Translations under genes and position numbers: made by a program
Part shown: one piece after another, positions 1 through 16,692 of the stretch
Numbering within the stretch: position 1 is the stretch's first letter
Layout of the letters: every line of letters begins with the position of its first letter
Notes under the pieces: model-generated
Told to the model about the DNA's origin: nothing
The model's database searches: none
What the model saw: the letters and a program-made list of their open reading frames with translations, nothing else
NCBI GenBank assembly: GCA_029262755.1
Contig: JAJCYU010000008.1
Coordinates: 114-64,113, forward strand
Length of the DNA: 64,000 bases
Origin: Anaerolineae bacterium
GTDB taxonomy: Bacteria > Chloroflexota > Anaerolineae > Epilineales > Epilineaceae
Direction of reading: 5' to 3'

Positions 1-2791
1 TGCCTGGGAAGAGGAGTCGGCCGACGACTACGACTTGAAGGTGCTCGACGAGGGCTACCGACTCCTGCGGCCGCGCGAGCACTCGGCGCAGGTGCCGGGC
101 GAGGAGCGCGAGTTCATCGAGCGCGCCTTCAAGGGCAATAGCGAATTGGTCAACACCGTCGTGGCCACGCCGACCCTGGAGATGGGCGTCGATATCGGAG
201 CCCTGGACGCGGTCCTGATGCGCAACGTGCCCCCACTACCGGCGAACTACTGGCAGCGCGCCGGTCGCGCCGGACGCCGCCACCGCATGGCCGTCGTCTT
301 GACCTACGCGCGCGGTGCCAGCCACGACCGCGCCTACTTTGAAGAACCGCTCAAGCTCCTGGGTGGCTCCATCGATCCGCCATCCTTCAATCTGCGCAAC
401 GACGTCATGGTGCGGCATCACGTCCACAGCACGGTATTGAGTTGGCTACATCGCAGGGTGCGCAGTGGTGAGGACCTGACGGAGTTCGATCGCACCGAGG
501 TGGCCGAAGCTCTTGGAAAGGCCTTCCCGCCGCGTGTCAGCGAATACCTGTTCAACGACCGGGGAGAGGTGCGCGCCAAGCCGCGCGAGATGAGCCTGCT
601 GCGTCTCGTGATTAGCAAGCACCAGGGGCTTATCTTCGAGCACGTGGAGTCGGTCTTTGGTCAGGGATGGCCCGAGTTGGATAAGAAGGTCGTCGAAGGT
701 GAGCGTCTCAAGCAGTACGTCGATGAGATGGCCGACGAGCTCGAGGTCGTGGTGCATAGGCTCTTCCGCCGGTTGCAGTGGGCGTTGGGCCAACTCAACC
801 GCCTTGAGGATGTTCGCAAGCGCAAGGGCACGCTCGACAAAGAAGACGAGGCGCTGCGCCGGCGTTGCGACAGGCTCGTGCGCCGGCTCAAGGGGCAAAG
901 CTTCGGCGACAAGGGCTCAGCCGAGGGAGTCGATGGTACATGGACGTACGGCGTGCTGTCCGCAGAAGGATTTCTGCCCGGCTATGGCCTAGATACGGGC
1001 TCGATTGTGGCCTATCACCAGCCGGCCTTCGGCTCCGGTCGGCGCGATTGGGAGTTACGTCGTTCCCAGGCCCTGGCGCTGCGCGAGTACGTGCCCGGTA
1101 ACTTGATCTACGCGGCGGGGCAGAAGTACCTCGCACGTAGGTATCACCTTGCGCTGGAAGGCGAGGATGGCAAGGGCCCGGCTCACTACCTGGTCGACCC
1201 CGCGGCCGAAGCGGTGCGCGAGCTGGACGGCTCGTCGAACGGAATGTCCGCAGGGCTCGGAGGCCAGACGATTACCGCCATCCCTATCAGCGATGTCGAT
1301 GTGCCGCACCACTCGTCCATCAGCGACGACGAGACCTATCGCTTCCAGATGCCGGTCTCGATCTTCGGCTACGAGCAGCCGCAGCACGAAGGCGGCACGG
1401 CTCTGTCCTGGAGCAAGAAGCAGCTCCATCACCGGCGCGGCGTGCGGCTGCGGCTGGTCAACGTCGGAGCCGCCACCCTGGTGCGGTCCAAGGGCGAGCT
1501 TGGCTACCCGGTGTGCATGGCCTGCGGCGCGAGCCGCTCGCCCATGGCTAGCCAGGTCGAGCGGGACAAGTTCGCCGAGACCCATCGCTCCAACTGCGGG
1601 CAGCCCGCGGAGCGCATCGGCTTCTACGCTGATGTCGTGGCCGACGCGCTGTCGTTGGTCGACTGCACCGACCGGACCGAGGCCTATAGCGTGATGGAGG
1701 CGCTGCGCCGCGGCGCGGCCGATATCCTGGAGATGGAAATCGAGGACCTTCAGCTGCTGGCCGTCGGCAAGCCAGGCGAGGAGGCGCTCGACATCCTGCT
1801 CTACGACCCCATGCCCGGCGGCTCGGGACTGCTCGACCAGATGGTCGATCGTTGGGCGGAGGTCGTCGCAGCGGCCAATCTCGTGCTCGATTGTCCCGCG
1901 CAATGCGGCGCGGCCTGCGTGGATTGCCTGCAGCGCTTCCGCAACGCGCACATCCATCGCTACCTTGACCGCCATGCAGCACTGGAGCGGCTCGCCGCTT
2001 GGGGCGCGAAGCTCCAGATGAAGCACGCGATCCCGGCCAAGCTGCCGCAGGCGGCGGAGTCAGGCAGTCCTAAAGCGACCAACATGGCGGAGTCCCGGCT
2101 CGCGGCCATGTTCGAGAAAGCCGGATTCCATGGAGCGATTGCCCAGCACGAGATCGAGATCGGCACGAAGTACAAGCGAACGCTTCCCGACTTTTTCTTT
2201 GAAGATTCGGGTGGGCACACGCTCGGGATCTGCGTCTACCTCGATGGGCTGAGTTTGAAGCTGCATGGCAATCCCAAGACTCAGAAGGCCGATGCCTACA
2301 TTACCGATTGGTTGCTCAATGAGGGCTATGCGGTGCGGCGCATCGCTGCGACTGAGCTCGACGATGCCGGAACGATGGGCAATCACTTCTTCTGGCTGGG
2401 CCAGCGACTTGTGAGTGTCCGGCGCGCCAAGGAGCTTCGCGAGCGGCCCAATGATTGGTTCGTGGGACGCGAGGAGGCGAACAACGGGAGTGACGACCGT
2501 GAAGTGTCCAACTGGGATGAGACAATCGACGGTCTGATCGCAGAGCAGTGGCGCACTTTGGCGCGTGGATTGCGCGACGCCGGCCTTGCGGCACCGGACG
2601 ATGGCGCGGGCGACCTCGTAGCGGACGGGTTGGATGGGCGTATGGCAATCATGGTGTGGCAGACAGATCGCGGAGAAGTTGCACTCATCGAGGAGGGAAC
2701 GCCGACCGACGACCCCCGCCATGTGGCCGCCCGTCCCGAAAGCGATCCCGCAGCGGTGGCGCGGGCCGTTCGCGAGCGGATGGGAGGCTGA
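1..2791 (+). CDS. Giant SF2 (DEAD/DEAH-type) helicase, 5'-partial; only the C-terminal ~918 aa lie in the window. Carries helicase motifs V/VI, a DUF1998/MZB-like zinc-ribbon region, a DUF559 (Vsr/restriction-endonuclease-like) domain and a ~120-aa C-terminal tail
   Basis: The reading frame is open from nt 2, so the gene continues upstream. Motif VI QRAGRAGRR and motif V TPTLEMGVDIG are present. Cys clusters YPVCMACGAS and CPAQCGAACVDCLQRF sit ~100 aa apart, as in DUF1998 of MrfA/DrmA/DruE-type helicases. The C-terminal block KRTLPDFFFEDSGGHTLGICVYLDGLSLKLHG...GYAVRRIAATELDD resembles DUF559. Confidence 0.75.
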   Translation, partial: AWEEESADDYDLKVLDEGYRLLRPREHSAQVPGEEREFIERAFKGNSELVNTVVATPTLEMGVDIGALDAVLMRNVPPLPANYWQRAGRAGRRHRMAVVLTYARGASHDRAYFEEPLKLLGGSIDPPSFNLRNDVMVRHHVHSTVLSWLHRRVRSGEDLTEFDRTEVAEALGKAFPPRVSEYLFNDRGEVRAKPREMSLLRLVISKHQGLIFEHVESVFGQGWPELDKKVVEGERLKQYVDEMADELEVVVHRLFRRLQWALGQLNRLEDVRKRKGTLDKEDEALRRRCDRLVRRLKGQSFGDKGSAEGVDGTWTYGVLSAEGFLPGYGLDTGSIVAYHQPAFGSGRRDWELRRSQALALREYVPGNLIYAAGQKYLARRYHLALEGEDGKGPAHYLVDPAAEAVRELDGSSNGMSAGLGGQTITAIPISDVDVPHHSSISDDETYRFQMPVSIFGYEQPQHEGGTALSWSKKQLHHRRGVRLRLVNVGAATLVRSKGELGYPVCMACGASRSPMASQVERDKFAETHRSNCGQPAERIGFYADVVADALSLVDCTDRTEAYSVMEALRRGAADILEMEIEDLQLLAVGKPGEEALDILLYDPMPGGSGLLDQMVDRWAEVVAAANLVLDCPAQCGAACVDCLQRFRNAHIHRYLDRHAALERLAAWGAKLQMKHAIPAKLPQAAESGSPKATNMAESRLAAMFEKAGFHGAIAQHEIEIGTKYKRTLPDFFFEDSGGHTLGICVYLDGLSLKLHGNPKTQKADAYITDWLLNEGYAVRRIAATELDDAGTMGNHFFWLGQRLVSVRRAKELRERPNDWFVGREEANNGSDDREVSNWDETIDGLIAEQWRTLARGLRDAGLAAPDDGAGDLVADGLDGRMAIMVWQTDRGEVALIEEGTPTDDPRHVAARPESDPAAVARAVRERMGG

Positions 2792-2794
2792 CCA

Positions 2795-4858
2795 ATGCGC
2801 ATCGTGCTCGCCGACACGCTGGCCCAGAGTCTCGAAGCACTCGACAAGTCCGTGCGAGGGCTGGTCAAGCGGAAGGTCTTCGATTTCCAACTCGCGCCGG
2901 CCACATCCGGCAAGAGCTATCACCGCATCGATAAGGCACCGCAGCAAGGCTTCTGGTCCTTCCGCGTCAATCGCGACCTGCGATTGGTCGTCTTTCAGGA
3001 GGGCGACCTACGTGTCCTGTGCCACGTCGCCCACCATGACGACGCCTACGAATGGGCGATGCGTCACCGCTACGAGGAACACCCCAACACGACCGAGATC
3101 CAACTCGTGCGCATCGAGAAATCCGTGCGCGAGGTGATCGAGCGGCGGGTGAAGGTCATCGAAGAGTTGCCCCCCCTCTTCACGAAGCATACCGATGATT
3201 ATCTACTTGCCCTCGGCGTTCCGCCTGTCTGGTTGGACGCCATCAAGCTGGTGACGGAGGACACCCTTCTGGAAGCGCTCGACGAATTGCCCAGCGCCGT
3301 AGCCGAGCGTCTGATGCGGCTTTACGAAGGCAAGCCGGTGCCCCGCCCGGTGATCGCCGCGGGAGCGACGGGCTGGGATCACCCCGACACCGCACGCCAC
3401 TTCCGGGTACTGGGCTCCGAGCGCGAGTTGCAGCAGGCGCTGGAGTTCCCATGGCAGAAGTGGATCGTCTTCCTCCATCCCGAGCAGCGCAAAGTGGCCG
3501 AGCGCACCTTTTCCGGATCGGCTCTGGTGACGGGCGGCGCCGGCACGGGCAAGACGGTGGTCGCGCTGCACCGTGCACAACACCTTGCCGAGGCCAATCC
3601 GAACGCGCGCATCCTGCTGACGACGTTCTCGCGCACGCTGTCTGCAAGCCTCGAGCGCAACGCCCGGGTGCTGATGGGTGAGGACAGCCCGCTGTTGGAC
3701 CGCATTCACGTGGCCAACGTGCATCGCTACGCCGTGGAGGCCTACGAGGAAGCGCACGGCGCAGGACCGCATCTGATCAACGACCAGTCGCTCCAATCGC
3801 GGCTAGCCTCGATCTCGGGCCGGCTTGGATTCGACGAGTTCCCCCTCGACTTCATCGAGGCCGAATGGTGGAACGTCATCGATGCTTGGGGAATCCACGA
3901 TTGGTCGAGCTACCTGACTTTCGCCCGGGTTGGCCGCAAGCAGCGGCTGGGCGCCCGTCAACGGCAGCGGATGTGGCGTGTCTTCGAAGCGATGCTGGGC
4001 GAGTTGCGCGCTGACAACCGACAGACCTACAGTGCGCTTTGCGACACATTGCGCCGTGATGTTGAACATGGCCTAGTGCCCCGCTTCGATCACGTCGTCG
4101 TCGATGAAGCTCAGGACTTTGGACCGGCCGAGCTGCGCCTGCTACGGGCGCTCGTGCTGGAGGGGCCGGACGACCTCTTTCTGAGCGGTGACGCCGGGCA
4201 GCGCATCTTCCAGAGCCGCTTCCCGTGGCTGGCCGCCGATATCGACGTGCGCGGCCGATCGAGCACACTGCGTGTCAACTATCGGACCACCGAGCAAATC
4301 CGTCGCTTCGCAGACCGCATGCGCTTCGTCGTGCACGACGAGGCCGACCCGCTATCGCTTGACGAGGGCGCCGTGTCGCTCCTCGGTGGTCCTGAGCCGA
4401 CACTGATCGGCGCCGACGACAAGGCGGGGGAGATATTGACGCTGTCCACTTGGCTGGAAGAGTTGCTCCAAGACGGCTACCAGCCCGAAGACGTGGCCAT
4501 CTTTGCCCGCACCAAGAAGGTCCGCGACGAGCGGGGGCGCCCGGCCATTGAGCGCTCTGGCGCCCGTGTGCATGAGCTCAACGACGATCGCGAGCCGGAG
4601 GCAGGTTGTGTTTCGCTAGGCACGATGCACCGCGCCAAGGGCCTCGAGTTCAAGGCCGTGGCCGTCGCCGGCTGCGACCGGCGGATGCTGCCGCAGGCGT
4701 GGTTAGCCGAACGCATCGGTGACGCGGCCGAGCGCGAAGCCTTCATCGAGCGCGAACGACACGTCTTCTATGTGGCCTGCACCCGGGCACGCGAGCGGCT
4801 GCTGGTAACGTGGGTCGGGGAGGGGAGCGAGTTTCTGGAGGCAGTAGAACGGGATTGA
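2795..4858 (+). CDS. UvrD/PcrA-like SF1 helicase with an N-terminal RelE/ParE-toxin-like domain (~100 aa)
   Basis: Walker A VTGGAGTGKTVVALHRA, Walker B VVVDEAQDF, NYRTTEQI, GTMHRAKGLEFKAVAV and FYVACTRARERLLVT. The N-terminus VNRDLRLVVFQEGDLRVLCHVAHHDDAYEW follows the RelE/ParE sequence pattern. The ATG lies 4 nt after the upstream stop, with a GGAGG-like site inside the upstream gene's 3' end. Confidence 0.8.
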   Translation: MRIVLADTLAQSLEALDKSVRGLVKRKVFDFQLAPATSGKSYHRIDKAPQQGFWSFRVNRDLRLVVFQEGDLRVLCHVAHHDDAYEWAMRHRYEEHPNTTEIQLVRIEKSVREVIERRVKVIEELPPLFTKHTDDYLLALGVPPVWLDAIKLVTEDTLLEALDELPSAVAERLMRLYEGKPVPRPVIAAGATGWDHPDTARHFRVLGSERELQQALEFPWQKWIVFLHPEQRKVAERTFSGSALVTGGAGTGKTVVALHRAQHLAEANPNARILLTTFSRTLSASLERNARVLMGEDSPLLDRIHVANVHRYAVEAYEEAHGAGPHLINDQSLQSRLASISGRLGFDEFPLDFIEAEWWNVIDAWGIHDWSSYLTFARVGRKQRLGARQRQRMWRVFEAMLGELRADNRQTYSALCDTLRRDVEHGLVPRFDHVVVDEAQDFGPAELRLLRALVLEGPDDLFLSGDAGQRIFQSRFPWLAADIDVRGRSSTLRVNYRTTEQIRRFADRMRFVVHDEADPLSLDEGAVSLLGGPEPTLIGADDKAGEILTLSTWLEELLQDGYQPEDVAIFARTKKVRDERGRPAIERSGARVHELNDDREPEAGCVSLGTMHRAKGLEFKAVAVAGCDRRMLPQAWLAERIGDAAEREAFIERERHVFYVACTRARERLLVTWVGEGSEFLEAVERD

Positions 4859-4906: not shown

Positions 4907-6058
4907 CTACGAAGCGACCTGTAGAGCCTCCAACACAATGAAGCCGTCGATGGCAGCGCTCTCCGGAAGGGCACGCACCTGCTCGTCGAGCTCCATGGGT
5001 CGAACGTTGTGTTCGGCCATCAATTCGTACTGAAGTGCATATCCTTCAAGCACGCCGGCGCGCGCAGTTAGTCGGTTCATGAACGGGACGACCACGTCCA
5101 AGTCTCGCTGTCGTTGCTCGGCCGGCGAAGGCGCCGTGAACCGGTCCCGAATGCGTGACGCCGATAGGGCTGCGCGTGCCTTGTGGACATCCTCGAATTG
5201 GGGCTTGCGGATCGTTCGCTCGTCGTAGTAGGGGCCAAGCTCGCGCCGAAGGTCGTCCAACCGATCGCTCGCGTGATCTGAGTCCTCGTTCGCGAAACTG
5301 AGCCAAGCCGACAGGGTTGTTAGAGATACAGAGTCCACAAAATCGGCGTGCAGGAAGCGATGCGGTTCGTCGCCTAGCAGCAGATCGTTCGCAAAGCGCC
5401 TGGTATGGTCGCGCCACACCTCAATTCCGTCGGCGAGCTCGGAGGCCGCAAGGTTCATTGAGCCCATGTCGGCTTGACAACGGGCGAGGCCGAGTAGGGC
5501 GATGCAGAAGATCTGCTCGTTGGCGTCTGCCACGGTGATCTCCTCGGAATGCGCCAGCGCGTTGCGGTATTGGTGCGTCTTCACCGACAGATCGCGATAG
5601 GCATCCACCAAGACCTCTCGCTGGGCATCACCGTCCGCCATCTGAACCACCTTGGCCACTCGCTCCAGCGCGGCGTGCAGCTCCGCTCGCTCGCGGCGTT
5701 CGAGCAATTCGCGGATGGCTCTGACGTCGCGCGCGACAGATTCAAGGCGCTTCTCTAGCCGGTCCAACATCACGAACAGGGTCGAGAACCCTACGGCCGA
5801 GACGGCCAGGTTGAGTGCGGAGAAGGCCATCGTGGCCTGCATGCCTTGGAGGAGGAGAGGGGCGGATGCCGAAAGACGCGCCAACTCAGCTTGTTGTGGA
5901 ATCACCAGGTGGCGCACGATCTGACCGGCTCCCTCCTCTCCGGCCGCTCGGCGAACGACACCGCCGAGTACGGTGCACCGACGTGCATCTACGCAGGGAA
6001 GGACGTCGAGGGGCAGCGAACGCATGACGTTCATGCCGAGGATGCTCGAGTCGATCAT
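4907..6058 (-). CDS. Hypothetical protein with one predicted TM helix (AFSALNLAVSAVGFSTLFVML) followed by a coiled-coil-like region; start may instead be at 5842
   Basis: Long ORF, hydrophobic segment, no recognisable catalytic motifs. Sits on the same strand downstream of the two PD-(D/E)xK genes. Confidence 0.5.
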   Translation of the reverse strand: MIDSSILGMNVMRSLPLDVLPCVDARRCTVLGGVVRRAAGEEGAGQIVRHLVIPQQAELARLSASAPLLLQGMQATMAFSALNLAVSAVGFSTLFVMLDRLEKRLESVARDVRAIRELLERRERAELHAALERVAKVVQMADGDAQREVLVDAYRDLSVKTHQYRNALAHSEEITVADANEQIFCIALLGLARCQADMGSMNLAASELADGIEVWRDHTRRFANDLLLGDEPHRFLHADFVDSVSLTTLSAWLSFANEDSDHASDRLDDLRRELGPYYDERTIRKPQFEDVHKARAALSASRIRDRFTAPSPAEQRQRDLDVVVPFMNRLTARAGVLEGYALQYELMAEHNVRPMELDEQVRALPESAAIDGFIVLEALQVAS

Positions 6059-6227
6059 GGGAAGGCCCTCGATAGGTATGACGTTGAAGAATCGACGCGG
6101 TAGGCCCCACGGTGGGGCAGGGCTTGCAAGCGCTTATCCACGCACGTGAAAAACGTTGAAGTTCAACCACCCTAGCACAGCCCAATTGGCCTGCGCCACC
6201 AGTGTTCTGCTCGCTGATCCATCGGAC

Positions 6228-7112: not shown

Positions 7113-8555
7113 TCAAACTCCCAGTGGAGCGACTCCCAGCCGCCGATCCCTCGCGTCGCGAATCTCGCACACAGTCTCATGCAGCACGTCGGCCTTCGGC
7201 AGGATCTCGTCGCCGTGCAGCCTCAGCGCCGGTTTCAGCTCATCGACGTACGTGGCGAACACGCGGCAGCCTTCCGGTGCGGCGATGATGAACGAGGCCG
7301 ATCCGACCTGCAAGGCGTAGGAACGGCCTTGCATCGCAGCGTCCTTCCAGTCCTCGCGGCGCACGAGGGAGTGCTTGGCCTCCACGATGGTCAGCAGCCG
7401 GCCTTCGCCGTCGCGAACCAGGTAGTCGATCCGGCCTAGGATGCGCTGCGAGCCGAGTCGGAACTCGCAGGCGTGTTCGCGAATCGAGCGCCCGCCCATT
7501 TTCTTGAGCACGCCTTCGAGGCAGTCCTTGCAGAAGGCGTCCTCGTCCGGATAGTCGCCCGCACGACGAATTCGGTCGAAAGCCGCGGCAGCCACTGAAG
7601 GGGTGGCCGTCTCCGATGGGCTTTCACCTTGCAGCAACTCATGAAGTCGTACGCGCATGCGCGGCGGGATCGACTCCGCTACCAAGCCGTTGAATCGTGA
7701 CTTGACGAGGCCCCATTGCGCGAGCACCTCGTCGGCCATCATCTCCGCGAAGGTCAAGTGACCTGAACTATCGACACGCCGAAGGTCCACGTTGCACGCA
7801 CGCCACCGCGCTAGCGGATCGATGCCGGGCAACCCATCCACCTCAAACACATCGGTGATCGCCCGAGTGTCTGCCATCCGGTACACGTAAACCTTTTCGC
7901 CCGGCGCCATCTCCATTCGCCCAGACCAGGTGACCGTCTCGTTCTCGAGCTCCGCGTAGTCACCCGGCTTGCAGGCAACTAGCCACGCCCGCTCGCCGTC
8001 GCCGCGCCGCACGTGCAGCGGGATCAGGTCGTCGTAGAGGAAGCGCCAGAGGCGAAACTGAAGCTCGAAGCGATCTCGCGGACGCTTGAGAAGAGTGCCG
8101 ACTGAGGTCCGGCGCGGCCACCACTCCTCCGCCAACTCAAAGAGTGCGTCACCGATTTTGCGCCATCGGTCGAGAGCGCGCTGTCCGCTGCCGAAGGCAT
8201 GAAACGAAAACGCGAGACGCGGTTCTGCGGCGCTAAGGAAGGCGAGTCCATCGAAGAGCTCGCGGTCGTAGTACGGCGCGCGCCACAGAAGGAAGTGGTC
8301 TGGATGGGCACGCGCCAACATCGCGGTGGACTCTACGAGCTTGCCGCGAAGTGTCTTGCTGCGGCGCACGCGACCGTAGGCCGTCGCGGGTGTGTCACGG
8401 TCCAGGTTGGCCAGGACGCGTGGCTTCCTCTTGTAGCCATATCGGATCTGGTCGACCAGTGCCCGCGGCTCGATTCGCCGGAAGCGCTCGTACGACGATA
8501 GATCCGCCTCGGCCGCTCGGGCGATGAGGCGTTCGAGCATGACGTTGGCGTTCAT
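7113..8555 (-). CDS. Hypothetical two-domain protein: central possible PUA-like (EVE/ASCH-type) barrel plus C-terminal PD-(D/E)xK nuclease domain
   Basis: GRIDYLVRDGEGRLLTIVEAKHS gives D…EAK. The central segment WLVACKPGDYAELENETVTWSGRMEMAPGEKVYVYR is EVE-like. RBS GGAAGGAG lies 8 nt before the ATG at 8555 (MNANVMLERL). Confidence 0.6.
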   Translation of the reverse strand: MNANVMLERLIARAAEADLSSYERFRRIEPRALVDQIRYGYKRKPRVLANLDRDTPATAYGRVRRSKTLRGKLVESTAMLARAHPDHFLLWRAPYYDRELFDGLAFLSAAEPRLAFSFHAFGSGQRALDRWRKIGDALFELAEEWWPRRTSVGTLLKRPRDRFELQFRLWRFLYDDLIPLHVRRGDGERAWLVACKPGDYAELENETVTWSGRMEMAPGEKVYVYRMADTRAITDVFEVDGLPGIDPLARWRACNVDLRRVDSSGHLTFAEMMADEVLAQWGLVKSRFNGLVAESIPPRMRVRLHELLQGESPSETATPSVAAAAFDRIRRAGDYPDEDAFCKDCLEGVLKKMGGRSIREHACEFRLGSQRILGRIDYLVRDGEGRLLTIVEAKHSLVRREDWKDAAMQGRSYALQVGSASFIIAAPEGCRVFATYVDELKPALRLHGDEILPKADVLHETVCEIRDARDRRLGVAPLGV

Positions 8556-9089
8556 GGTGAGCACTCCTTCCTATCATGCCGAAGTCAGTGCTGAAACGCG
8601 GGACCGTCCGCACGATACAGTGTGCCGTGCCCACCGTCATGTGGGTTCTCCAGCAGCGGATCAGCTGCGCGGTCAGCCGGCCAACTCGGAGCTTGCGTTG
8701 CGCTCAACTGACCGTCGGCCTCGCTCGGTCCAAATCGTCGCCCCAAAACGAAAAATCTTAGGGCCAAGGTGCCACGCCCAAGCGCCTTACGGTCTCGCCC
8801 AACGCCAAGGATTAATGCGGTGCGGGTTTCTTATTGTCGTTTGGCGAAAGCGGGTTGAACGGCGAGTGGAGGCTGTATGGGGGTAAACAATGGTGTTGGA
8901 ACGGACGGGCCGTCGCTTTCGGGGATGAAATCGCCGACTTCATTGATCCCAAGGAGGTGCTCCGTGGTCGGATAGAGGCGGTATGAGACGAGCGCCCTGA
9001 CTCCACAACTGTACGATGGTCCTTCGCTGAGATGCTGACTAGACACAAGCGAGGCTCGGCAACGCGCTCGTACGATCGTCCCCGAATCG

Positions 9090-9953
9090 TCACGGGCCGG
9101 GGAAGGCAATCAGTGCATCTCCGATGGGATAGGCATCGTCCGGACATGAATCGCCGTAGAATAACGGGTCGCCCCACTCGGTATCCGCTGTCCATTGGAA
9201 CGGACCCTTCAGGCGCGCTAGCCGGGAGCGTGGAACCGTGACAGTTAGAGTCTGGCCGTCGACGACGGGCCCTACCAGATCGAATGACTTCGAGGCAACA
9301 AAGTCGAATATGGCCGCGTACCAGTTTGCTCTGATCAACTCGGCGCTGATCGTGTAAAGGGTTCGATCTTCGTAAACAATGCTCGCGCCCCAAAAGTACG
9401 CGTCGAACTCAGACCCTAGCACGCTGGAGTCAGACGGGATTGGGCCTACGGCATCAAAGGCCACCTTGAGGGAGTTTCCGTCGGCTTCGAGGCGTACGGC
9501 TTGCAAATCGAGCCCAGGAATGGGGTCGGGCGGAGCGGTGCCATCCCCATCGCCCGTGTCGCCCACGCTGTCCGAGCAGACGGCTGAACCCTTGAACGTG
9601 AACTCTTGCGCCGGAGTGCGTTGCCTCTGCGTTGTGGAAGTTGGTGTTCGAGGTGTCTTTGTGGGCGCATCGGATTCCGCGTCCGAATTGCTCGAAGCCT
9701 CGGCGGCCGATTCGGATGGGGTAGCGGTGTGGGTGACCGACGCCCCCGATCCTTCGCTAGCCGCCTGCGGAGTTGACGTTGCTGCGCGGTCACCGTCGTT
9801 GTCCGAGGGAAGCGACTGCACTTCACCGCACGCTCCACAGACTGCGAAGGGAGCCAGGCCCGCCAGAACCAGCACCTTCCGCCAGCCGCGTCCGCGACTA
9901 CAGGCTGGAATGCCATTCTTGGGTGCCAAAGTGTCGCCCGTGCCACTTCTCAT
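9090..9953 (-). CDS. Secreted or lipoprotein-like hypothetical protein with a Ser/Thr/Pro/Asp-rich linker and a C-terminal globular domain
   Basis: Signal-peptide-like VLVLAGLAPFAVCGAC followed by a low-complexity ST-rich region. The start codon is uncertain. Confidence 0.5.
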   Translation of the reverse strand: MRSGTGDTLAPKNGIPACSRGRGWRKVLVLAGLAPFAVCGACGEVQSLPSDNDGDRAATSTPQAASEGSGASVTHTATPSESAAEASSNSDAESDAPTKTPRTPTSTTQRQRTPAQEFTFKGSAVCSDSVGDTGDGDGTAPPDPIPGLDLQAVRLEADGNSLKVAFDAVGPIPSDSSVLGSEFDAYFWGASIVYEDRTLYTISAELIRANWYAAIFDFVASKSFDLVGPVVDGQTLTVTVPRSRLARLKGPFQWTADTEWGDPLFYGDSCPDDAYPIGDALIAFPGP

Positions 9954-10159
9954 AAAGCCTTCTCCCCATAGCCTCTCGGTTGCCGCGATGAGTAATGATC
10001 CCCTCAATCGCAGCCCGCGCAAGGCTGTCGTAGAATCGGCGGTAGGGTCGGTAAGTGCACACCACCCTCCTGACCGAGCCGCATCTCGCTCGGTGTAGGA
10101 GCAGAGGCGAGATGCGACCGTCTAGAACGAATCCAGCCCGGCCCAGATAATGGAACAAG

Positions 10160-10785
10160 GTGTCCACTCGGCTGTACCACCTCACCCATGGCAGCAACCT
10201 GGCGGCGATCATCGCGCAGGGTGGATTGCGCTGCAAGCGGCAATTGCGGGAGGCCAACGTCGACCATCGAGACGTCGCGCGGCGCCCCCTGCAGGAGAGG
10301 AGATCCACCAGGCAGGTTCGTAAAGGGCCTGGCGGCACACTCCACGATTTCGTGCCTCTCTACTTCGCGCCGCGACCGCCCATGCTTTACGCGCTACTCG
10401 ATCCGAAGAGGCCAGATGGTCCTGTCGACGAACGCGCGATGAACTATCTGGTCACCGACACAGACATGGTCGAGCGTCACGAGCGACCCTTCGTCTTCAC
10501 CGATGGCCACGCGGTGATGGGGTTCACGCAGTTCCACAACAGTCTTGATGAACTGCCTCTGCTGGACTGGGAGGTCATTGAAAGCAGAGACTGGGCGGAC
10601 ACTAACGACGATCCGGACCGAAAGCGACGCAAGCAAGCCGAATTCCTCATTGCCGAGGAGGTTCCCTGGGCGATGATTCAGGAGATGGAGTCTTCGATGA
10701 GGTTGTCGAAGCCCGCGTTCGCGAGATCGTGCGCCAGGCCGGATCGGATCACGAGCCGACGGTACGCGTGCAACCCGGCTGGTAA
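10160..10785 (+). CDS. darT: DarT (DUF4433) ssDNA thymidine ADP-ribosyltransferase toxin with an apparent 1-nt frameshift near 10679–10689 (pseudogene or sequencing error)
   Basis: N-terminus VSTRLYHLTHGSNLAAIIAQGGL is the DUF4433 signature. Frame A runs through EFLIAEEVPWAMIQ. A second frame then reads GVFDEVVEARVREIVRQAGSDHEPTVRVQPGW*, which matches a DarT C-terminus. The span is 626 nt, one short of 3n. GTG start. Confidence 0.75.
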
Positions 10786-10808
10786 TATCATGTTGGAGGG
10801 AGGTCCCG

Positions 10809-11870
10809 ATGATCGAGCTTGGACGTGGCAACATTCTAGAGGTCGAAGCCGAGGCGCTCGTGAACACCGTCAACTGCGTCGGTGTTATGGGCAAGGGCAT
10901 CGCTCTGCAGTTCAAGCGGGCCTTTCCGCACAATTACGCTGCCTACCGGAAAGCGTGCGACGCAGGCGACGTCGCCCCTGGACGAATGCACGTCCATGCG
11001 ACGTCATCCTTGGTCGGGCCTCGGATCATCATCAACTTCCCGACGAAGCGCCACTGGCGCAATCCTTCTCAACTGGACGACGTCACGGAAGGGCTACGCG
11101 ACCTCGTCTGGATCGTGCGGGAGCACGGGATTCAGTCGATTGCGGTACCTCCGCTCGGATGCGGCAATGGCGGCCTTGATTGGGCGCAGGTGGAACCGCT
11201 CATCCGGAAGGCGTTCGAGCCGCTCGAAACAGTGCGCGTCATTCTCTATACGCCTGGTTACGCGCCCAGCGCGCGCGAGCGCCGACCGGCGCCCGGAGCG
11301 TGGAAGTGGACACCTGCCCGATCGCTGATGGTGCAGCTGATGGATGCTTACCGTCAGGGCGAGTACCGACTAAGCCTGCTTGAGATACAGAAACTCGCCT
11401 ACTTCATGCAGGAGGCGGGCGAGCCGATGAAGTTGAACTTCGTCAAGGCCGTGTACGGGCCGTACGCGGACAACGTGAGCCACCTGCTCCAGTCGATGGA
11501 AGGCCACGCGATCGATGGGGCAACAGACGAGCGGTCACCCGAAACGGAGATCGGGCTGCTCGAAGGCGCGGCCGAAGAGGCCCGCGACTATGCGATCGAT
11601 TCGTCTACGGTGGGCAGGCTCACTAGGGTGCTCAGCCTTATCGAAGGCTTCGAGACGCCGTATGGGATGGAGCTGCTCGCTTCGGTGCATTGGGTAGCGC
11701 GCGAGAGCGTGACCCACGAGAGGCCGTTGAATGACGATGCGCTTGTTCAGGCTATTCACGCCTGGAACGAGCGGAAGCGTCGATTGCTCAAGCCGGAGCA
11801 CATTCGCGTTGCGGCGAAGCATCTGCGCGCTCATGGTTGGATGGGCCAGTCATTGGCCGTGCCGGCCTAG
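10809..11870 (+). CDS. darG: DarG antitoxin (N-terminal macrodomain, ADP-ribosyl-DNA glycohydrolase)
   Basis: ILEVEAEALVNTVNCVGVMGKGIALQFKRAFP is a macrodomain signature. GGAGG RBS. Position is immediately after darT. Confidence 0.85.
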   Translation: MIELGRGNILEVEAEALVNTVNCVGVMGKGIALQFKRAFPHNYAAYRKACDAGDVAPGRMHVHATSSLVGPRIIINFPTKRHWRNPSQLDDVTEGLRDLVWIVREHGIQSIAVPPLGCGNGGLDWAQVEPLIRKAFEPLETVRVILYTPGYAPSARERRPAPGAWKWTPARSLMVQLMDAYRQGEYRLSLLEIQKLAYFMQEAGEPMKLNFVKAVYGPYADNVSHLLQSMEGHAIDGATDERSPETEIGLLEGAAEEARDYAIDSSTVGRLTRVLSLIEGFETPYGMELLASVHWVARESVTHERPLNDDALVQAIHAWNERKRRLLKPEHIRVAAKHLRAHGWMGQSLAVPA

Positions 11871-12054
11871 GAGTGGTCATCGGCCCTGCGCGCCCCCGCC
11901 GACAGATCAATCCGACACGCCTCCAGAACCTCCGCCAAGAACGACTCTTCCAATCCCACGGTTCTCGTCTAGAAGTCCATGAGCTCCTTCAGCGGGGTTG
12001 CCCGAAGACCAGCCGGTAGGCGACCAGGCTTTGATTGAGCCGCACGATAAAAAT

Positions 12055-12219
12055 CCCGTGCGTATACCGACGAAAGCGGGCACCTGTCAGCGAAAGACCC
12101 GTTCACCCATGTCCAATCCGGGCACTTTTAGCACCCTGTCAGGACCCAGCGTCGCTTCGCTCCGACAGCTGCCCGGTTTCCTCGGAATGGGTGCCCGCTT
12201 TCGTCGGAATGAGCACGGG
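12055..12219. mobile_element. 165-bp element bounded by 30-bp imperfect terminal inverted repeats (24/30 identical) with internal sub-repeats; MITE-like or structured RNA
   Basis: Left arm cccgtgcgtataccgacgaaagcgggcacc (12055–12084). Reverse complement of the right arm 12190–12219 is cccgtgctcattccgacgaaagcgggcacc. Internal repeats ctgtcag/ccgacag and tcggaatg. Confidence 0.5.
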
Positions 12220-12890
12220 TGCGCGATTGCCAGCTCCCCGGAGCCACCACCCCATGACCATCTACGACCGCATCGGCCACCACTACGCCACGCGCCGCCG
12301 CCAAGACCCCCTTCGTCGAAGGCGAAGCCGTACTCGCCGCGGAGGCCGTTGAGGATGGCGTTGCTGCCGGCCTCGCCGACGTGGTAGTGGTAACCGGGCA
12401 CAGCGTCGGAGTGGCCGCCGTTCGCGTCGAGGTCCGTCGGCGCTTGGCCGGCCTCGTCGTGGCTGGCGCAGAGGCCGTAGCCGTCGACGGCGTAGCCGAT
12501 GAGCGGTGCGTGATCTTCCTCGGTCGCCACCTCAACCGTGCAGCCGGTGTGGGCGCGGTAGTGGTAGCCGGCCACGGGGTTGACGTGACCGCCGCAGTCG
12601 TCGAAGGGTGCCAGGGTGTAGGCGCCGAGGATGGCGTCGACGGGGGCGGCCAGGTCCTGCGCGGCCTCTTGCGCTCCCGTTTGCTGCGCTCCGGCCTGTT
12701 ACACGCCGGTCTCTGGCGCGTCGGAATCCGGCGCCTCGCGGTCTTCTGGGGCCTGCTCGACGGCCTCCGGCGCGGCCATTCGCGCGGTCGGGGGAGGGTC
12801 GACCGGCCGGGCGCAACCGGCGAGCGGCACGAGCGCTGCGAGGACGTCCGCGGCCAAGGAGGCCGGGAGAGATGCGCGGGACGGGTGCAT
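12087..12890 (-). pseudogene. YHYH-family lipoprotein gene interrupted by an in-frame TAA (12699–12701); its 3' end runs into the inverted-repeat element
   Basis: Lipoprotein signal MHPSRASLPASLAADVLAALVPLAGC, then ...PETGV*QAGAQQ... in the same frame, then GYHYRAHTGC and GYHYHVGEAG (YHYH motifs). Confidence 0.55.
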
Positions 12891-13036: not shown

Positions 13037-15868
13037 TCAGGAGGTCTCGTCGCTCCCTCCGCCGCCGTCCCCGCCGCCCGTACCACCGCCCTCCTGCGCC
13101 ACCCGCCGCATGATGCGCCGTGCCACGCGCTCGATCCCGAGCGCAGCGCCCTCCGCGCGCGCCGCCGCGTGCGCCTGCGTGCGCAGCGGCTCGAGGACCC
13201 GGTCGTAGTCCTCCACGGCGAGGTCGAGGTGACCTTCGGCGGCACCGACGATCCACGCCGCCTCCTCGCCGCGGTCGAGGTCCAGGCACGTTATGGCGAG
13301 AGCGGCCAAGGCGAGGCAGATGTAATTCTCCGTCCCGAGGTTCTGTTCCGAGCGTAGCAGGTAGTCCAGGCTATTGAGGAGGATGGGCATGGCGTCTCGC
13401 GTTCGTCCGTCCAGGGCCAGGGAGGCGGCCCACTCGGTCTTCGACTTGGCGACCATGTCGCGGTTGCCCAACGCGGCGTAGCCTTCGATTGCGCTGCATG
13501 CATGCTCCGCGGCGGCGCCGGGTTCGCCGAGCCGGCGATAGCAGATGGCGACCATGCTGTGGGCGCCCGCCTCGTACTGCTGGTAGCGGATGCCGCGGAA
13601 GACGTCCAGCGCCTCCTGGAAGCCGGCGAGCGATTCCTCGAGCCGCCCTTGTTGCATGCGCAGATTGGCCAAGGTGGCTAGTGAGGTGCCGAGCGTCACC
13701 GAGTTGATGTCGCTGCGGTCTAGGCCGAGGACCTCCTCCAGCAGTTGCTCCGCCCTCGACGCAAGGCCGATGTTGGATGCCGTAAGGGCCGCTGTCTGCA
13801 GCGCCTGACCAAGGCCACGTGAGGTGCCTTCCTCGCGTACGAGAGCCAATCTGCGCAGGGCCGCCTCGTAGGCTGCTTCCCGCTTGTTTTGAAATTTCAG
13901 GAGCGAATGCTCGATATACGCCGCAAGCCGCCGTTCCTCGGGGCCGTCGGCACCGTGGGCCAGAACGTGCGCTTCTTCCAACAACGTCATCGCGGCCTGC
14001 GACTCACCACGGACATAGAGCTGGCGTCCCAGGGAACAAAGTGCCCGCGCTCGAAGAAGGCTCTGCTCGGCAGGCGTATCCCGTTCCAAGAGCACGTGCG
14101 CGAGCGCGAGCAGATCGGGCATCGCATAGCGCACCGTCCAGTAGGCGATGACGTTCGCGAAGACCTTCATGCCCGCGGTCACGTCGCCCTCGGTGCTTGC
14201 CCAGCGCAGCGCGGCGAGGAGGTTGTCGCGATCGCGATCGAGCCGATCCAGCGTATCCGACATCGCCTCTCCCCTCAGGCCGTCTCTCGCTGAATCGCAC
14301 AGCGCCGCGGCCCACGCGAGATGCCGCTCGCGCAGCCGGACCTCGGCGCCCGCTTCGGCCAGGCGCTGCGCGGCGAACGCGCGCACCGACTCCAGCAGGT
14401 CGTAGCGCGGGGGGGTGTCGTCGGTGTCCACAGTCACCAGCGATTTCTCGACGAGCTCGCTGAGCAGGTCCAGCACCGCCCAATCCTCGACCGCCTCGCC
14501 GGCGCAGACGGCCTCCGCCGCCTCCAGGTCGAAGCCGCCGGCGAAGACGCACAGTCGTTGCAGCAGCGCCTGCTCGGGCTCGTCGAGCAGGCGGTAGCTC
14601 CAGTCCAGCGTCTCGTGCAGGGCCTGGTGGCGGGGCAGTGCCGTGCGCCGGCCGGCGGTGAGCAGGCGGAAGCGCTGGTCGAGGCGGTCGAGGATCTGCC
14701 GGGGCGACATCGCCTTTACCCGCGCCGCCGCCAACTCGATGGCCAGCGGCAGACCGTCCAGGCGCCGGCAGAGCTCCACCACGTCGGCCGTGTTGCCGGC
14801 GTCGAGCGCGAAGTCGCGCCGAACAGCCTTCGCGCGGTCGAGAAAGAGTCGTACCGCGGCGTAGTCCGCGGCCGTTTCGGGTGTCGGGGGCGCTTCGTTC
14901 TCGGGCGGCGCGCTGAGGGCCGGCACGGCGTAGACGTGCTCGCCGTCAACGCGCAAGGCCTCGCGGCTGGTGGCCAGGACGCTCAGGCCGGGATGGGCCA
15001 TGGCGAGCGATTCGACGAGCGTCGCGCAGGAATCGATGACATGTTCGCAGTTGTCGAGCAGCAGCAGGAGCCGGCGCTCCTGCAGGAAGTCGTGCAGGGT
15101 GGCCTCCAGCGGCCGTCCCGGCTGCTCGCGCAGGCCGAGGCCCGCGGCCACCGATTCGACCACGCCCGCGCCGGGCTGGAGGGACGCAAGGTCAACCAGC
15201 CACGCGCCCTGCGGGAAGCTGCGCAAGGCCTGGAGCGCGGCGTGCAGCGCCAGCCGCGTCTTGCCCGTGCCGCCGGGGCCGGTGAGGGTGACGATGCCGT
15301 GGCGCCCGATGGCCTCCGTGACATGGGCCAACGAGCGCTGGCGCCCCACGAAGCTGCTGCGCCCGCGCGGAAGATTGTGCGGCGGGTCGGCGGAGCCGGC
15401 GGCGACGGGCGCGCCGGCCGGGGGCCCGGCGAGGTCGGCGTCGGAGCCGAACCCAGAGCGGGCGCGTTGGGCGGCGGCCTCGTCGCCCAGCGCGCGGTGC
15501 ACGCTCTCGGCCAGGCGGGGCAGGGCGGCGTCGAAGCCGAGGGCATGAGCGTCCACGTACTGGATGCGCCCGAGCTGGAAGTGCAGCTCGGTGGGCTGGA
15601 GCAGCACGGGCAGCACCGGCGTGCCGCGATCCAGGGCGTGCTGCCACTCGTCCTCGACGTTGGAGGAGGCCATGGCCGCCGGCGTCACGACGAGGATGAG
15701 GACGTCCGCCGAACGTAGCGCCTCTTGGATGGCCGTGCTCCAGCGCGCGCCGCCGTGGATGCCCTCACGGTCGATCCACGGCTCGATGCCGTGCGCGGGC
15801 AGGGCGGCGGCCAGGCGACGCGTAAACGGCTCGTCGCAGCGAGCGTAGCTGAGGAAGGCGCGGATCAT
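13037..15868 (-). CDS. TIR–NB-ARC–TPR STAND NTPase (bacterial TIR-domain STAND; candidate antiviral sensor with NADase effector)
   Basis: TIR domain FLSYARCDEP...WIDREGIHGGARW...ADVLILVVTPAAMASSNVEDEW contains the catalytic-Glu motif. P-loop GPGGTGKTRLAL, Walker B LLLLLDNCEH, LATSRE, then multiple TPR-like repeats. The ATG shares an ATGA overlap with the upstream ATPase stop. Confidence 0.85.
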   Translation of the reverse strand: MIRAFLSYARCDEPFTRRLAAALPAHGIEPWIDREGIHGGARWSTAIQEALRSADVLILVVTPAAMASSNVEDEWQHALDRGTPVLPVLLQPTELHFQLGRIQYVDAHALGFDAALPRLAESVHRALGDEAAAQRARSGFGSDADLAGPPAGAPVAAGSADPPHNLPRGRSSFVGRQRSLAHVTEAIGRHGIVTLTGPGGTGKTRLALHAALQALRSFPQGAWLVDLASLQPGAGVVESVAAGLGLREQPGRPLEATLHDFLQERRLLLLLDNCEHVIDSCATLVESLAMAHPGLSVLATSREALRVDGEHVYAVPALSAPPENEAPPTPETAADYAAVRLFLDRAKAVRRDFALDAGNTADVVELCRRLDGLPLAIELAAARVKAMSPRQILDRLDQRFRLLTAGRRTALPRHQALHETLDWSYRLLDEPEQALLQRLCVFAGGFDLEAAEAVCAGEAVEDWAVLDLLSELVEKSLVTVDTDDTPPRYDLLESVRAFAAQRLAEAGAEVRLRERHLAWAAALCDSARDGLRGEAMSDTLDRLDRDRDNLLAALRWASTEGDVTAGMKVFANVIAYWTVRYAMPDLLALAHVLLERDTPAEQSLLRARALCSLGRQLYVRGESQAAMTLLEEAHVLAHGADGPEERRLAAYIEHSLLKFQNKREAAYEAALRRLALVREEGTSRGLGQALQTAALTASNIGLASRAEQLLEEVLGLDRSDINSVTLGTSLATLANLRMQQGRLEESLAGFQEALDVFRGIRYQQYEAGAHSMVAICYRRLGEPGAAAEHACSAIEGYAALGNRDMVAKSKTEWAASLALDGRTRDAMPILLNSLDYLLRSEQNLGTENYICLALAALAITCLDLDRGEEAAWIVGAAEGHLDLAVEDYDRVLEPLRTQAHAAARAEGAALGIERVARRIMRRVAQEGGGTGGGDGGGGSDETS

Positions 15869-16431
15869 GGACGCCACCCCCACAACGCCCCCACGGGCAC
15901 GGCATGGATGTTCGCCGCGAAGGGCACGACCTCGCTGCCGCCGTAGATCACCAAGCCGCGGTGGAAGCGCTCGCCGGCCAGTTCGGCGAAGGCGCGGATG
16001 CCGCGCAGGTGACGATCGGAGAGGGAGGTGGAGGCCTTCACCTCGATGGCCACGCAGCGGCCCTGAGCGTCTTCCAGGATGAGGTCAACTTCCCGTCCTC
16101 GATGCGTGCGCAGGTGGTGGAGGTGGGCGCGCGTCGTCGACCAACCCAGCTGCTTGGCGATCTCCGTCGACACGAAGGTCTCGAGCAACGGGCCGATGGG
16201 CGTGGGCTCGGTGCGCAGACGCTCCGGGCTCAAGCCCAGGAGGTGGGCCGCAAGGCCGGAGTCGCTGATCACGGTCGCGTCGTCCAACGGGAGATAGCGT
16301 GCGGGGAGGGCCTCTTCCGCAAGGGCGCGGACGAGCGTGCTCTTGCCGACCTGCCGCGCGCCCGACAGGAAGACGACGGGCGTATCGGCAAGTGCGGCCA
16401 GCAAAGGTGGTGTTAGGGCGCGGGGCTTCAT
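15865..16431 (-). CDS. Short DUF4143-family ATP-binding protein: Walker A followed directly by the DUF4143/PD-(D/E)xK module, with the central AAA region missing
   Basis: FLSGARQVGKSTLVRAL, and VDLILEDAQGRCVAIEVKAS gives D…EVK. Only 188 aa, versus ~400 aa for typical COG1373 members. Confidence 0.7.
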   Translation of the reverse strand: MKPRALTPPLLAALADTPVVFLSGARQVGKSTLVRALAEEALPARYLPLDDATVISDSGLAAHLLGLSPERLRTEPTPIGPLLETFVSTEIAKQLGWSTTRAHLHHLRTHRGREVDLILEDAQGRCVAIEVKASTSLSDRHLRGIRAFAELAGERFHRGLVIYGGSEVVPFAANIHAVPVGALWGWRP

Positions 16432-16454
16432 GGGCGAGAGCGTAGTACGTGTGT

Positions 16455-16493
16455 GGTGGAATATCCACCACGCTATGGCGGATATTCCACCGT
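16455..16493. promoter_or_regulatory. Inverted pair of GGTGGAATATCC(A/G)CC motifs 25–60 bp upstream of the ATPase/TIR operon start; candidate operator
   Basis: gtggtggaatatccaccac ... atggcggatattccaccgtg; the second copy is the reverse complement of the first. Confidence 0.4.
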
Positions 16494-16525
16494 GTACGAA
16501 CGGGCGTGGCCATCCGGTCGCACAC

Positions 16526-16692
16526 CTAGTAGTCCAACCAGCCTGAATCTACGGGTTCGGGAGCCACTGCATCCACGCCAGCGGCCCGCCGCTCGTCGGC
16601 AATAGCGATGCTATTCAGTCCTCTCTGCGAACCACCGGCGCGGCGCATTGGCTCCCTCACTACCCGCATCTCCAAGCTGGTTGGACTACTAG
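16526..16692. repeat. Perfect 17-bp inverted repeat pair (CTAGTAGTCCAACCAGC / GCTGGTTGGACTACTAG) flanking 133 bp; MITE-like element or long RNA stem
   Basis: Exact reverse-complement match at 16526–16542 and 16676–16692. Confidence 0.5.

Follow-up and report, generated by a model that had tools for sequence, protein, structure and literature searches.

A DarTG2-class toxin–antitoxin locus with a probable darT pseudogene and an intact darG in an Anaerolineae bacterium

Has a DNA-modifying toxin of an Anaerolineae bacterium been lost by mutation, or does its broken reading frame reflect an error of sequencing? This question is raised by a darT–darG toxin–antitoxin locus on contig JAJCYU010000008.1 (assembly GCA_029262755.1), of which a stretch of 64,000 nucleotides (nt), positions 114 to 64,113 of the forward strand, was analyzed. 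This whole stretch is referred to here as the window, and all coordinates are given within it. The locus is probably a DarTG2-class module in which darT has become a pseudogene by a genuine one-base deletion and darG persists as an intact orphan antitoxin. A preliminary description, made from the sequence of the window, had identified a DarT–DarG pair with a frame break in the toxin gene and had proposed either toxin inactivation or a homopolymer sequencing error as its cause. The features on which the analysis is based are as follows (HMM, hidden Markov model; ORF, open reading frame; aa, amino acids).

10160..10687, plus strand: 5′ part of darT in frame 0, from the GTG start to Met176, encoding the NAD-binding and catalytic core of a DNA ADP-ribosyltransferase (Pfam, alignment to 7OMV)
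10685..10689, plus strand: frameshift junction ATGGA, one base short (translations, alignment to 15 homologues, HMM split)
10688..10785, plus strand: 3′ part of darT in frame +2, (G)VFDEVVEARVREIVRQAGSDHEPTVRVQPGW and a TAA stop, lying outside the translated DarT (Pfam coverage once the frame is restored, AlphaFold2 model)
10688..11179, plus strand: out-of-frame tail of the native frame-0 ORF, 163 codons and a stop (ORF listing)
10780..10812, plus strand: end of darT and darT–darG junction, TGG TAA TAT, read as Trp-stop-Tyr (sequence, homologue comparison)
10809..11870, plus strand: darG, intact, 353 aa, its N-terminal macrodomain (ADP-ribosyl-thymidine glycohydrolase) followed by a DarT-binding domain at the C-terminus (Pfam, PADLOC, Protein Data Bank alignments)

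The broken toxin gene and its intact partner

Translation in frame 0 from the GTG at 10160 opens with VSTRLYHLTHGSNLAAIIAQGGL… and proceeds to …EEVPWAMIQEM, after which the unrelated sequence ESSMRLSKPAF… follows. The native frame-0 ORF spans 10160..11179 and encodes 339 aa, with its stop codon at 11177-11179 (ORF listing). The frame starting at 10162 contains GVFDEVVEARVREIVRQAGSDHEPTVRVQPGW, which is closed by a TAA at 10783-10785. The Pfam DarT profile (PF14487) matches the native ORF at residues 6-176, corresponding to profile positions 1-168 of 201 (E 2.6e-47), and no Pfam domain was found in this ORF past residue 176. When one base is inserted, a 208-aa DarT is obtained which covers profile positions 1-199 of 201 (E 3.7e-54) and is also matched by the PADLOC DarT profile (E 3.7e-61). 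This repaired protein aligns end to end with the crystallized Thermus DarT (7OMV, E 2.6e-40) and is co-linear with 15 homologues. Moreover, an HMM built from 16 homologues splits darT between two frames, with positions 3-179 found in one and positions 179-208 in the other.

The homology in frame 0 ends at an ATG codon (M176, 10685-10687) and resumes with GGA (10687-10689), G10687 being part of both codons. Given this re-used G and the span of darT (10160-10785, 626 nt), one base is missing from the gene, and on the sequence a single-base deletion at codon 177 is the simplest reading of this span. The letters at the break are ATG-GA-GTC (10685-10692), with GG at 10687-10688 and no long homopolymer. 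The junction string with the deletion is ATGGAGTC, and the alternatives with an extra base are ATGGGAGTC or ATNGGAGTC. In the homologue alignment the family consensus at this point is E-I-G-V. Two candidates exist for the missing base, a G from a GGG run (Met-Gly) and the last position of an ATH isoleucine codon, and its place is defined only to 10686-10689.

These results agree with the preliminary description in the identity of the pair, which is confirmed at its coordinates by matches to Pfam, PADLOC, 7OMV and 5M31, and in the 626-nt span with a single-base deletion, as one inserted base restores the 208-aa DarT. The break, which had been placed at 10679–10689, is narrowed to 10686-10689 by the translations, the alignment and the HMM split. 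Two details required correction. The frame in which darT continues had been labelled +1 but is offset by +2 (equivalent to −1) relative to 10160, and the 23 nt said to precede the ribosome-binding site of darG extend instead from the darT stop to the darG ATG (10786-10808), with the ribosome-binding site GGAGGGAGG lying inside this gap at 10795-10803, 5 nt before the ATG.

The residues of Thermus DarT involved in NAD binding and catalysis are H13, T15, N19, R51, H65, Y71, M78, H119, and E160 (PMC9967889). By alignment, their equivalents in the darT described here are H7, T9, N13, R48, H62, Y68, M75, H117, and E161, all of which are encoded upstream of the break, and most of these columns are invariant or near-invariant among the homologues. 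In an AlphaFold2 model of the repaired DarT (mean predicted local distance difference test score, pLDDT, 91.6), the break cuts the strand at residues 175-178 and removes the helix at 181-194 and the strand at 201-204, elements which are modelled with a pLDDT of 94-98. The deletion at codon 177 would shift the frame just after the region of the catalytic E161. The product would keep the NAD-binding and catalytic residues. Half of a core β-strand would be lost together with the helix at the C-terminus and the final β-strand, and 163 unrelated residues would be gained. From the sequence and the model, the truncated DarT is expected to lose folding and toxicity, and the product would most likely be misfolded, degraded, and non-toxic. 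The frame-0 ORF also crosses the ribosome-binding site and start codon of darG and extends ~370 nt into that gene, an overrun which might lower darG translation.

The antitoxin gene is preserved throughout. Pfam places the Macro domain at DarG residues 18-131, and the PADLOC DarG profile is covered from position 1 to 328 of 329 (E 1.8e-126). DarG is colinear and gap-free with the macrodomain of Thermus aquaticus DarG (5M31, E 5.6e-53) and has kept the FPTK80 motif, and its residues 187-337 match chain B of 7YK3, which is named 'DNA ADP-ribosyl glycohydrolase' (E 2.9e-23). darT lies directly upstream of darG on the same strand, an order which is also found in the surveyed loci (see below) that carry darT. 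A search of the window for a second copy of darT or darG found none.

The DarTG2 class, in which thymidine is ADP-ribosylated, is defined by an antitoxin that combines a macrodomain with a DarT-binding domain at the C-terminus (PMC11543638). By its domains, residues, and gene order the locus is assigned to this class, and ADP-ribosylation and phage defence are its predicted activities. It resembles the DarTG2 systems of Thermus aquaticus/Thermus sp. 2.9, Mycobacterium tuberculosis, and enteropathogenic Escherichia coli in the darT–darG order with a gap of 23 nt, the PF14487 domain, the conserved residues, the K80 macrodomain, and the DarT-binding domain. Unlike them, it is known from sequence alone, and its darT is not one uninterrupted ORF of ~205-215 aa ending in W-Y-Y, being broken at codon 177 and lacking the terminal YY. 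The nearest relatives are distant, at 49% identity for DarT and 58% for DarG. With its darT broken, the locus would no longer ADP-ribosylate thymidines in single-stranded DNA to abort phage infection, and darG, with its macrodomain (K80) and DarT-binding domain, would stay behind as an orphan antitoxin. The mutation is presumably real at the level of the reads and darG is presumably still expressed.

The absent tyrosine pair is a second departure of darT from its family. At least 90% of the DarT homologues in the alignment have Y-Y, and darT here ends in …GW followed by the stop. Among 120 homologues, the C-terminus is W[YF][YF] in 105, and the aromatic pair is absent in only about six (~5%). 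A single substitution of the stop codon (TAA to TAY) would give the ending WYYHVGGRSR and a stop, whose TGA would overlap the ATG of darG (ATGA at 10809-10812). The absence of YY may represent a second lesion in darT and a sign of further decay.

The state of darT in related loci

DarG loci of species-representative genomes were surveyed at 48-58% identity, taking the best 80 of at least ~590 genome hits. The state of darT was scored by HMM on six-frame translations and that of darG by phmmer. Contig ends cut three of the 80 loci, which leaves 77 informative for darT. In 15 of these 77 (19%) darT was found to be disrupted or absent beside a full-length darG. The states of darT were distributed as follows.

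Intact: 62 of 77 loci
Frameshift: 3 loci (L019, L031, L042)
In-frame stop: 5 loci (L033, L052, L063, L072, L073)
5′-truncated: 4 loci (L039, L046, L051, L059)
Large internal deletion: 1 locus (L062)
Absent: 2 loci (L021, L061)

In L073 a TGG codon in the invariant D-W of darT is changed to TAG, in L072 a TAA lies two residues before the position of the break in the window, and in L019 the frame shifts a few codons upstream of it. Isolates are included in the disrupted set, namely Alteribacillus iranensis DSM 23995 (L052) and Halochromatium roseum DSM 18859 (L031). These two loci, together with those of Okeania sp. SIO2F4 (L072) and Aulosira sp. (L063), resemble the locus described here in carrying a point lesion in darT beside a full-length darG. 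The disruptions are independent events in unrelated lineages and are mostly nonsense mutations or truncations, as opposed to the single-base deletion in the window. Homopolymer errors cannot account for nonsense mutations and truncations, so decay of the toxin is genuinely frequent in this family, in line with the remark in the preliminary description that toxin inactivation is common. That description had also suggested comparing darT with its orthologues. Among homologues at most 49% identical, darT was in one frame in the 62 loci listed as intact, and the absence of the terminal YY, which had been missed earlier, was brought out.

darG was disrupted in only one of the 80 loci (L079). The asymmetry between 15 of 77 for the toxin and one of 80 for the antitoxin is expected if toxin loss is tolerated and antitoxin loss is lethal. 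It also means that counts of DarTG made from darG or from domain hits are too high as measures of functional systems. For the present locus the consequence is one of annotation, as darT should be recorded as a pseudogene and the locus left out of counts of active DarTG defence systems. On sequence grounds the most suitable label is degenerate DarTG2: the locus is a distant member of a familiar kind, and its state of decay is a common one.

Three further observations were made in the survey. The single locus with a disrupted darG, at 5338-7041 of L079 in a metagenome-assembled genome (MAG) of Hormoscilla sp., is the reverse case, with darT intact and an in-frame stop at about residue 41 of darG, which could be a sequencing error or could mean that the toxin is silenced in some other way. 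A Solirubrobacteraceae MAG carries two complete darT–darG pairs on one strand of a single contig, separated by about 2 kb (1638-3287 and 5371-7044 of L077). Finally, a span of 12 profile positions just before the conserved I-G-V strand contains four of the nine point disruptions of darT, those of L019, L063 and L072 at 168-177 and that of the window at 179. A scan statistic for clustering at positions 168-179 gave P = 0.056 when the window was counted and 0.32 when it was left out, and this clustering was treated as chance.

Origin and meaning of the frame break

An exact look-up of the DarG protein led to a single further assembly, a Logan contig of run SRR15505514, which matches positions 9466-11871 of the window at 100% identity over 2,406 bp without gaps and contains the break. 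Contigs in Logan are assembled from raw reads independently, by way of k-mers, of which only those seen at least twice are used. Because the Logan contig carries the identical break, an artefact specific to one assembler is unlikely. A literature search on the run accession SRR15505514 gave no hits, and one on pseudogenes and frameshifts of darT returned nothing directly relevant.

Further evidence on the quality of the sequence comes from the window itself. Within 40 nt of the site, and throughout 10640-10720, no base is repeated four or more times in a row. Uninterrupted ORFs 630-1,436 aa long are present in the window. Elsewhere in it no indel-broken gene was found, adjacent ORFs in different frames being separate complete genes by an ORF map filtered on GC content at third codon positions and by Pfam. 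The long unbroken ORFs and the complete adjacent pairs argue that there is no general indel noise. Relatives closer than those already described were sought in several collections. Among called proteins (5.8 billion clusters) none exceeded 49% identity to the repaired DarT, so that no intact allele is represented there, from run SRR15505514 or any other source. An exact-pattern scan of a metagenome collection, in which zero to two extra bases were allowed at the site, gave no match, a protein-guided scan of metagenome contigs found only relatives at most 34% identical, and the best DarG relative in the genome collection was 58% identical. Because close relatives were not found, no orthologue comparison or ratio of nonsynonymous to synonymous substitution rates (dN/dS) is available.

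Could the genome hold one more base than the assembly, with an intact darT of 208 aa and a working DarTG2? This is considered unlikely. A single added base does restore the full-length DarT match, and the frameshifted darT of L019 lies in a MAG whose 1.49-Mb contig suggests a long-read assembly, where such errors are plausible. Against such an error stand the separately assembled Logan contig, identical through the break site, the presence of only GG there (GGG or no run at all once repaired), the lack of any other gene in the 64 kb that appears indel-broken, and the absence of the intact allele among called proteins. Moreover, the repaired darT would still be without the conserved terminal YY. 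Of the two causes named in the preliminary description, inactivation is favoured by the Logan contig, the lack of other indel-broken genes, the lack of an intact allele, the possible second lesion at the terminal YY and the frequency of dead or missing darT in related loci, and a homopolymer error is not, given that only GG is present.

A frameshift that is real could still be compatible with a living toxin, either because the ribosome or polymerase corrects it or because the shortened protein retains activity. A programmed −1 ribosomal frameshift or transcriptional slippage at 10685-10689 would yield full-length DarT at a low, regulated level, and the step from frame 0 to −1 is formally that of −1 frameshifting, while a low dose of toxin would be biologically sensible. 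Nevertheless, programmed recoding of darT was rejected as hardly credible, as it lacks a slippery heptamer, a nucleotide run and a stable downstream structure. No in-frame X XXY YYZ heptamer is present at 10600-10705 and no run of four or more bases at 10640-10720; the AUG methionine codon in the P site is unable to re-pair in the −1 frame; and the RNA at 10690-10810 (121 nt) has a minimum free energy of −38.7 kcal/mol against a mean of −44.4 for shuffled sequences (z = +1.49). In addition, darT is in a single frame in 62 of the 77 homologous loci, and the disrupted ones differ in the place and kind of lesion. Survival of an attenuated toxin, consisting of the 176-residue core with or without the 163-aa tail, is somewhat less implausible than recoding but still very improbable. 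In such a weakened toxin–antitoxin or defence module darG would still be needed. All the Thermus DarT residues named above for catalysis or NAD binding have their equivalents before the break, darG is fully intact, and point disruptions elsewhere (L063, L019, L072) also tend towards profile positions 168-179. On the other hand, the lost segment holds core elements that were modelled with confidence (part of strand 175-178, helix 181-194, strand 201-204), it lies within the conserved Pfam domain (positions 169-199 of 201), the clustering of disruptions is not significant (P ~0.06 with the window, 0.32 without), and the out-of-frame tail has no Pfam domain.

Four points weigh against a genuine loss of function by the one-base deletion. 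The Logan contig may share its reads with the window, so that both may carry a systematic read error. The ancestral intact allele is deduced only from homologues at most 49% identical, no close relative having been found. With the catalytic residues all upstream of the break, the truncated DarT may have residual activity. Lastly, the absence of YY could be a tolerated variant of the lineage, as in ~5% of homologues.

If darT is indeed a pseudogene, as preferred here, the orphan DarG could be kept by selection after the loss of the toxin, as a standing immunity against mobile elements that carry DarT or as a repair glycohydrolase for ADP-ribosylated DNA, and this idea is regarded as doubtful. 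If it were true, the ~19% of loci with a dead or missing darT would represent a recurrent adaptive state, with toxin off and antitoxin on, and not just ongoing decay. In a weaker variant, C-terminal truncation of DarT near profile positions 168-179 may be a favoured form of toxin attenuation. In phages, orphan anti-DarT enzymes are described, including AdfB of ICP1 and the antitoxin-like enzymes of T4-like phages which neutralize DarTG1 (PMC11825919; PMC12409358). The likeness lies in an ADP-ribose-removing or DarT-neutralizing protein that is kept without a working cognate toxin. The difference is that the phage enzymes serve counter-defence, whereas the DarG of the window would have been orphaned incidentally, as the toxin of a cellular defence island decayed.

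The surrounding island

The GC content is 59-67% (mostly 60-65%) in the first ~12 kb of the window, which hold darTG, and mostly 65-75% in the rest. This low-GC stretch with darTG is consistent with a horizontally acquired defence island. The neighbouring genes are listed below.

2-2788, plus strand: DruE-like (Druantia) helicase with an MrfA Zn-binding (DUF1998) domain, cut by the start of the window
2792-4855, plus strand: UvrD/GajB-like helicase
4910-6133, minus strand: JukB-like protein
7116-8570 and 9090-10022, minus strand: two ORFs without a Pfam or PADLOC match
13037-15883, minus strand: 948-aa TIR-STAND-TPR protein (TIR domain at the N-terminus, STAND/NB-ARC-like NTPase, TPR repeats at the C-terminus), 1.2 kb downstream of darG
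15868-16548, minus strand: PDC-S01 ATPase (AAA_14 and DUF4143) of ~227 aa, without roughly profile positions 54-287

By its domains, the TIR-STAND-TPR protein looks like a bacterial NLR-like defence protein. In the PDC-S01 gene the N-terminus corresponds to positions 2-42 of the 129 of the AAA_14 profile and the remainder to positions 288-419 of the 422-position PDC-S01 profile. The gene thus looks like the product of an in-frame internal deletion of ~230 residues, which would make it a second decayed defence gene in the island, a point in favour of genuine decay of darT.

Around the darTG cassette no tRNA, Rfam element or convincing flanking repeats were found. A scan of 9800-12300 for sigma-70 promoters and intrinsic terminators also found none, although such a scan is uninformative for a high-GC organism. 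An inverted repeat is located ~185 nt downstream of darG, with 30-nt arms at 12055-12084 and 12190-12219 that are 90% complementary and separated by 105 nt. The motif of its arms occurs nowhere else in the window and has no Rfam match. Far from the island, at 53157-57464 on the plus strand, a single frame of 1,436 codons combines a region like an ECF S-component with CbiQ (T component) and a pair of ABC_tran ATPase domains. This frame could encode a fully fused ECF-type transporter, or it could comprise several genes that lie in one frame without intervening stops.

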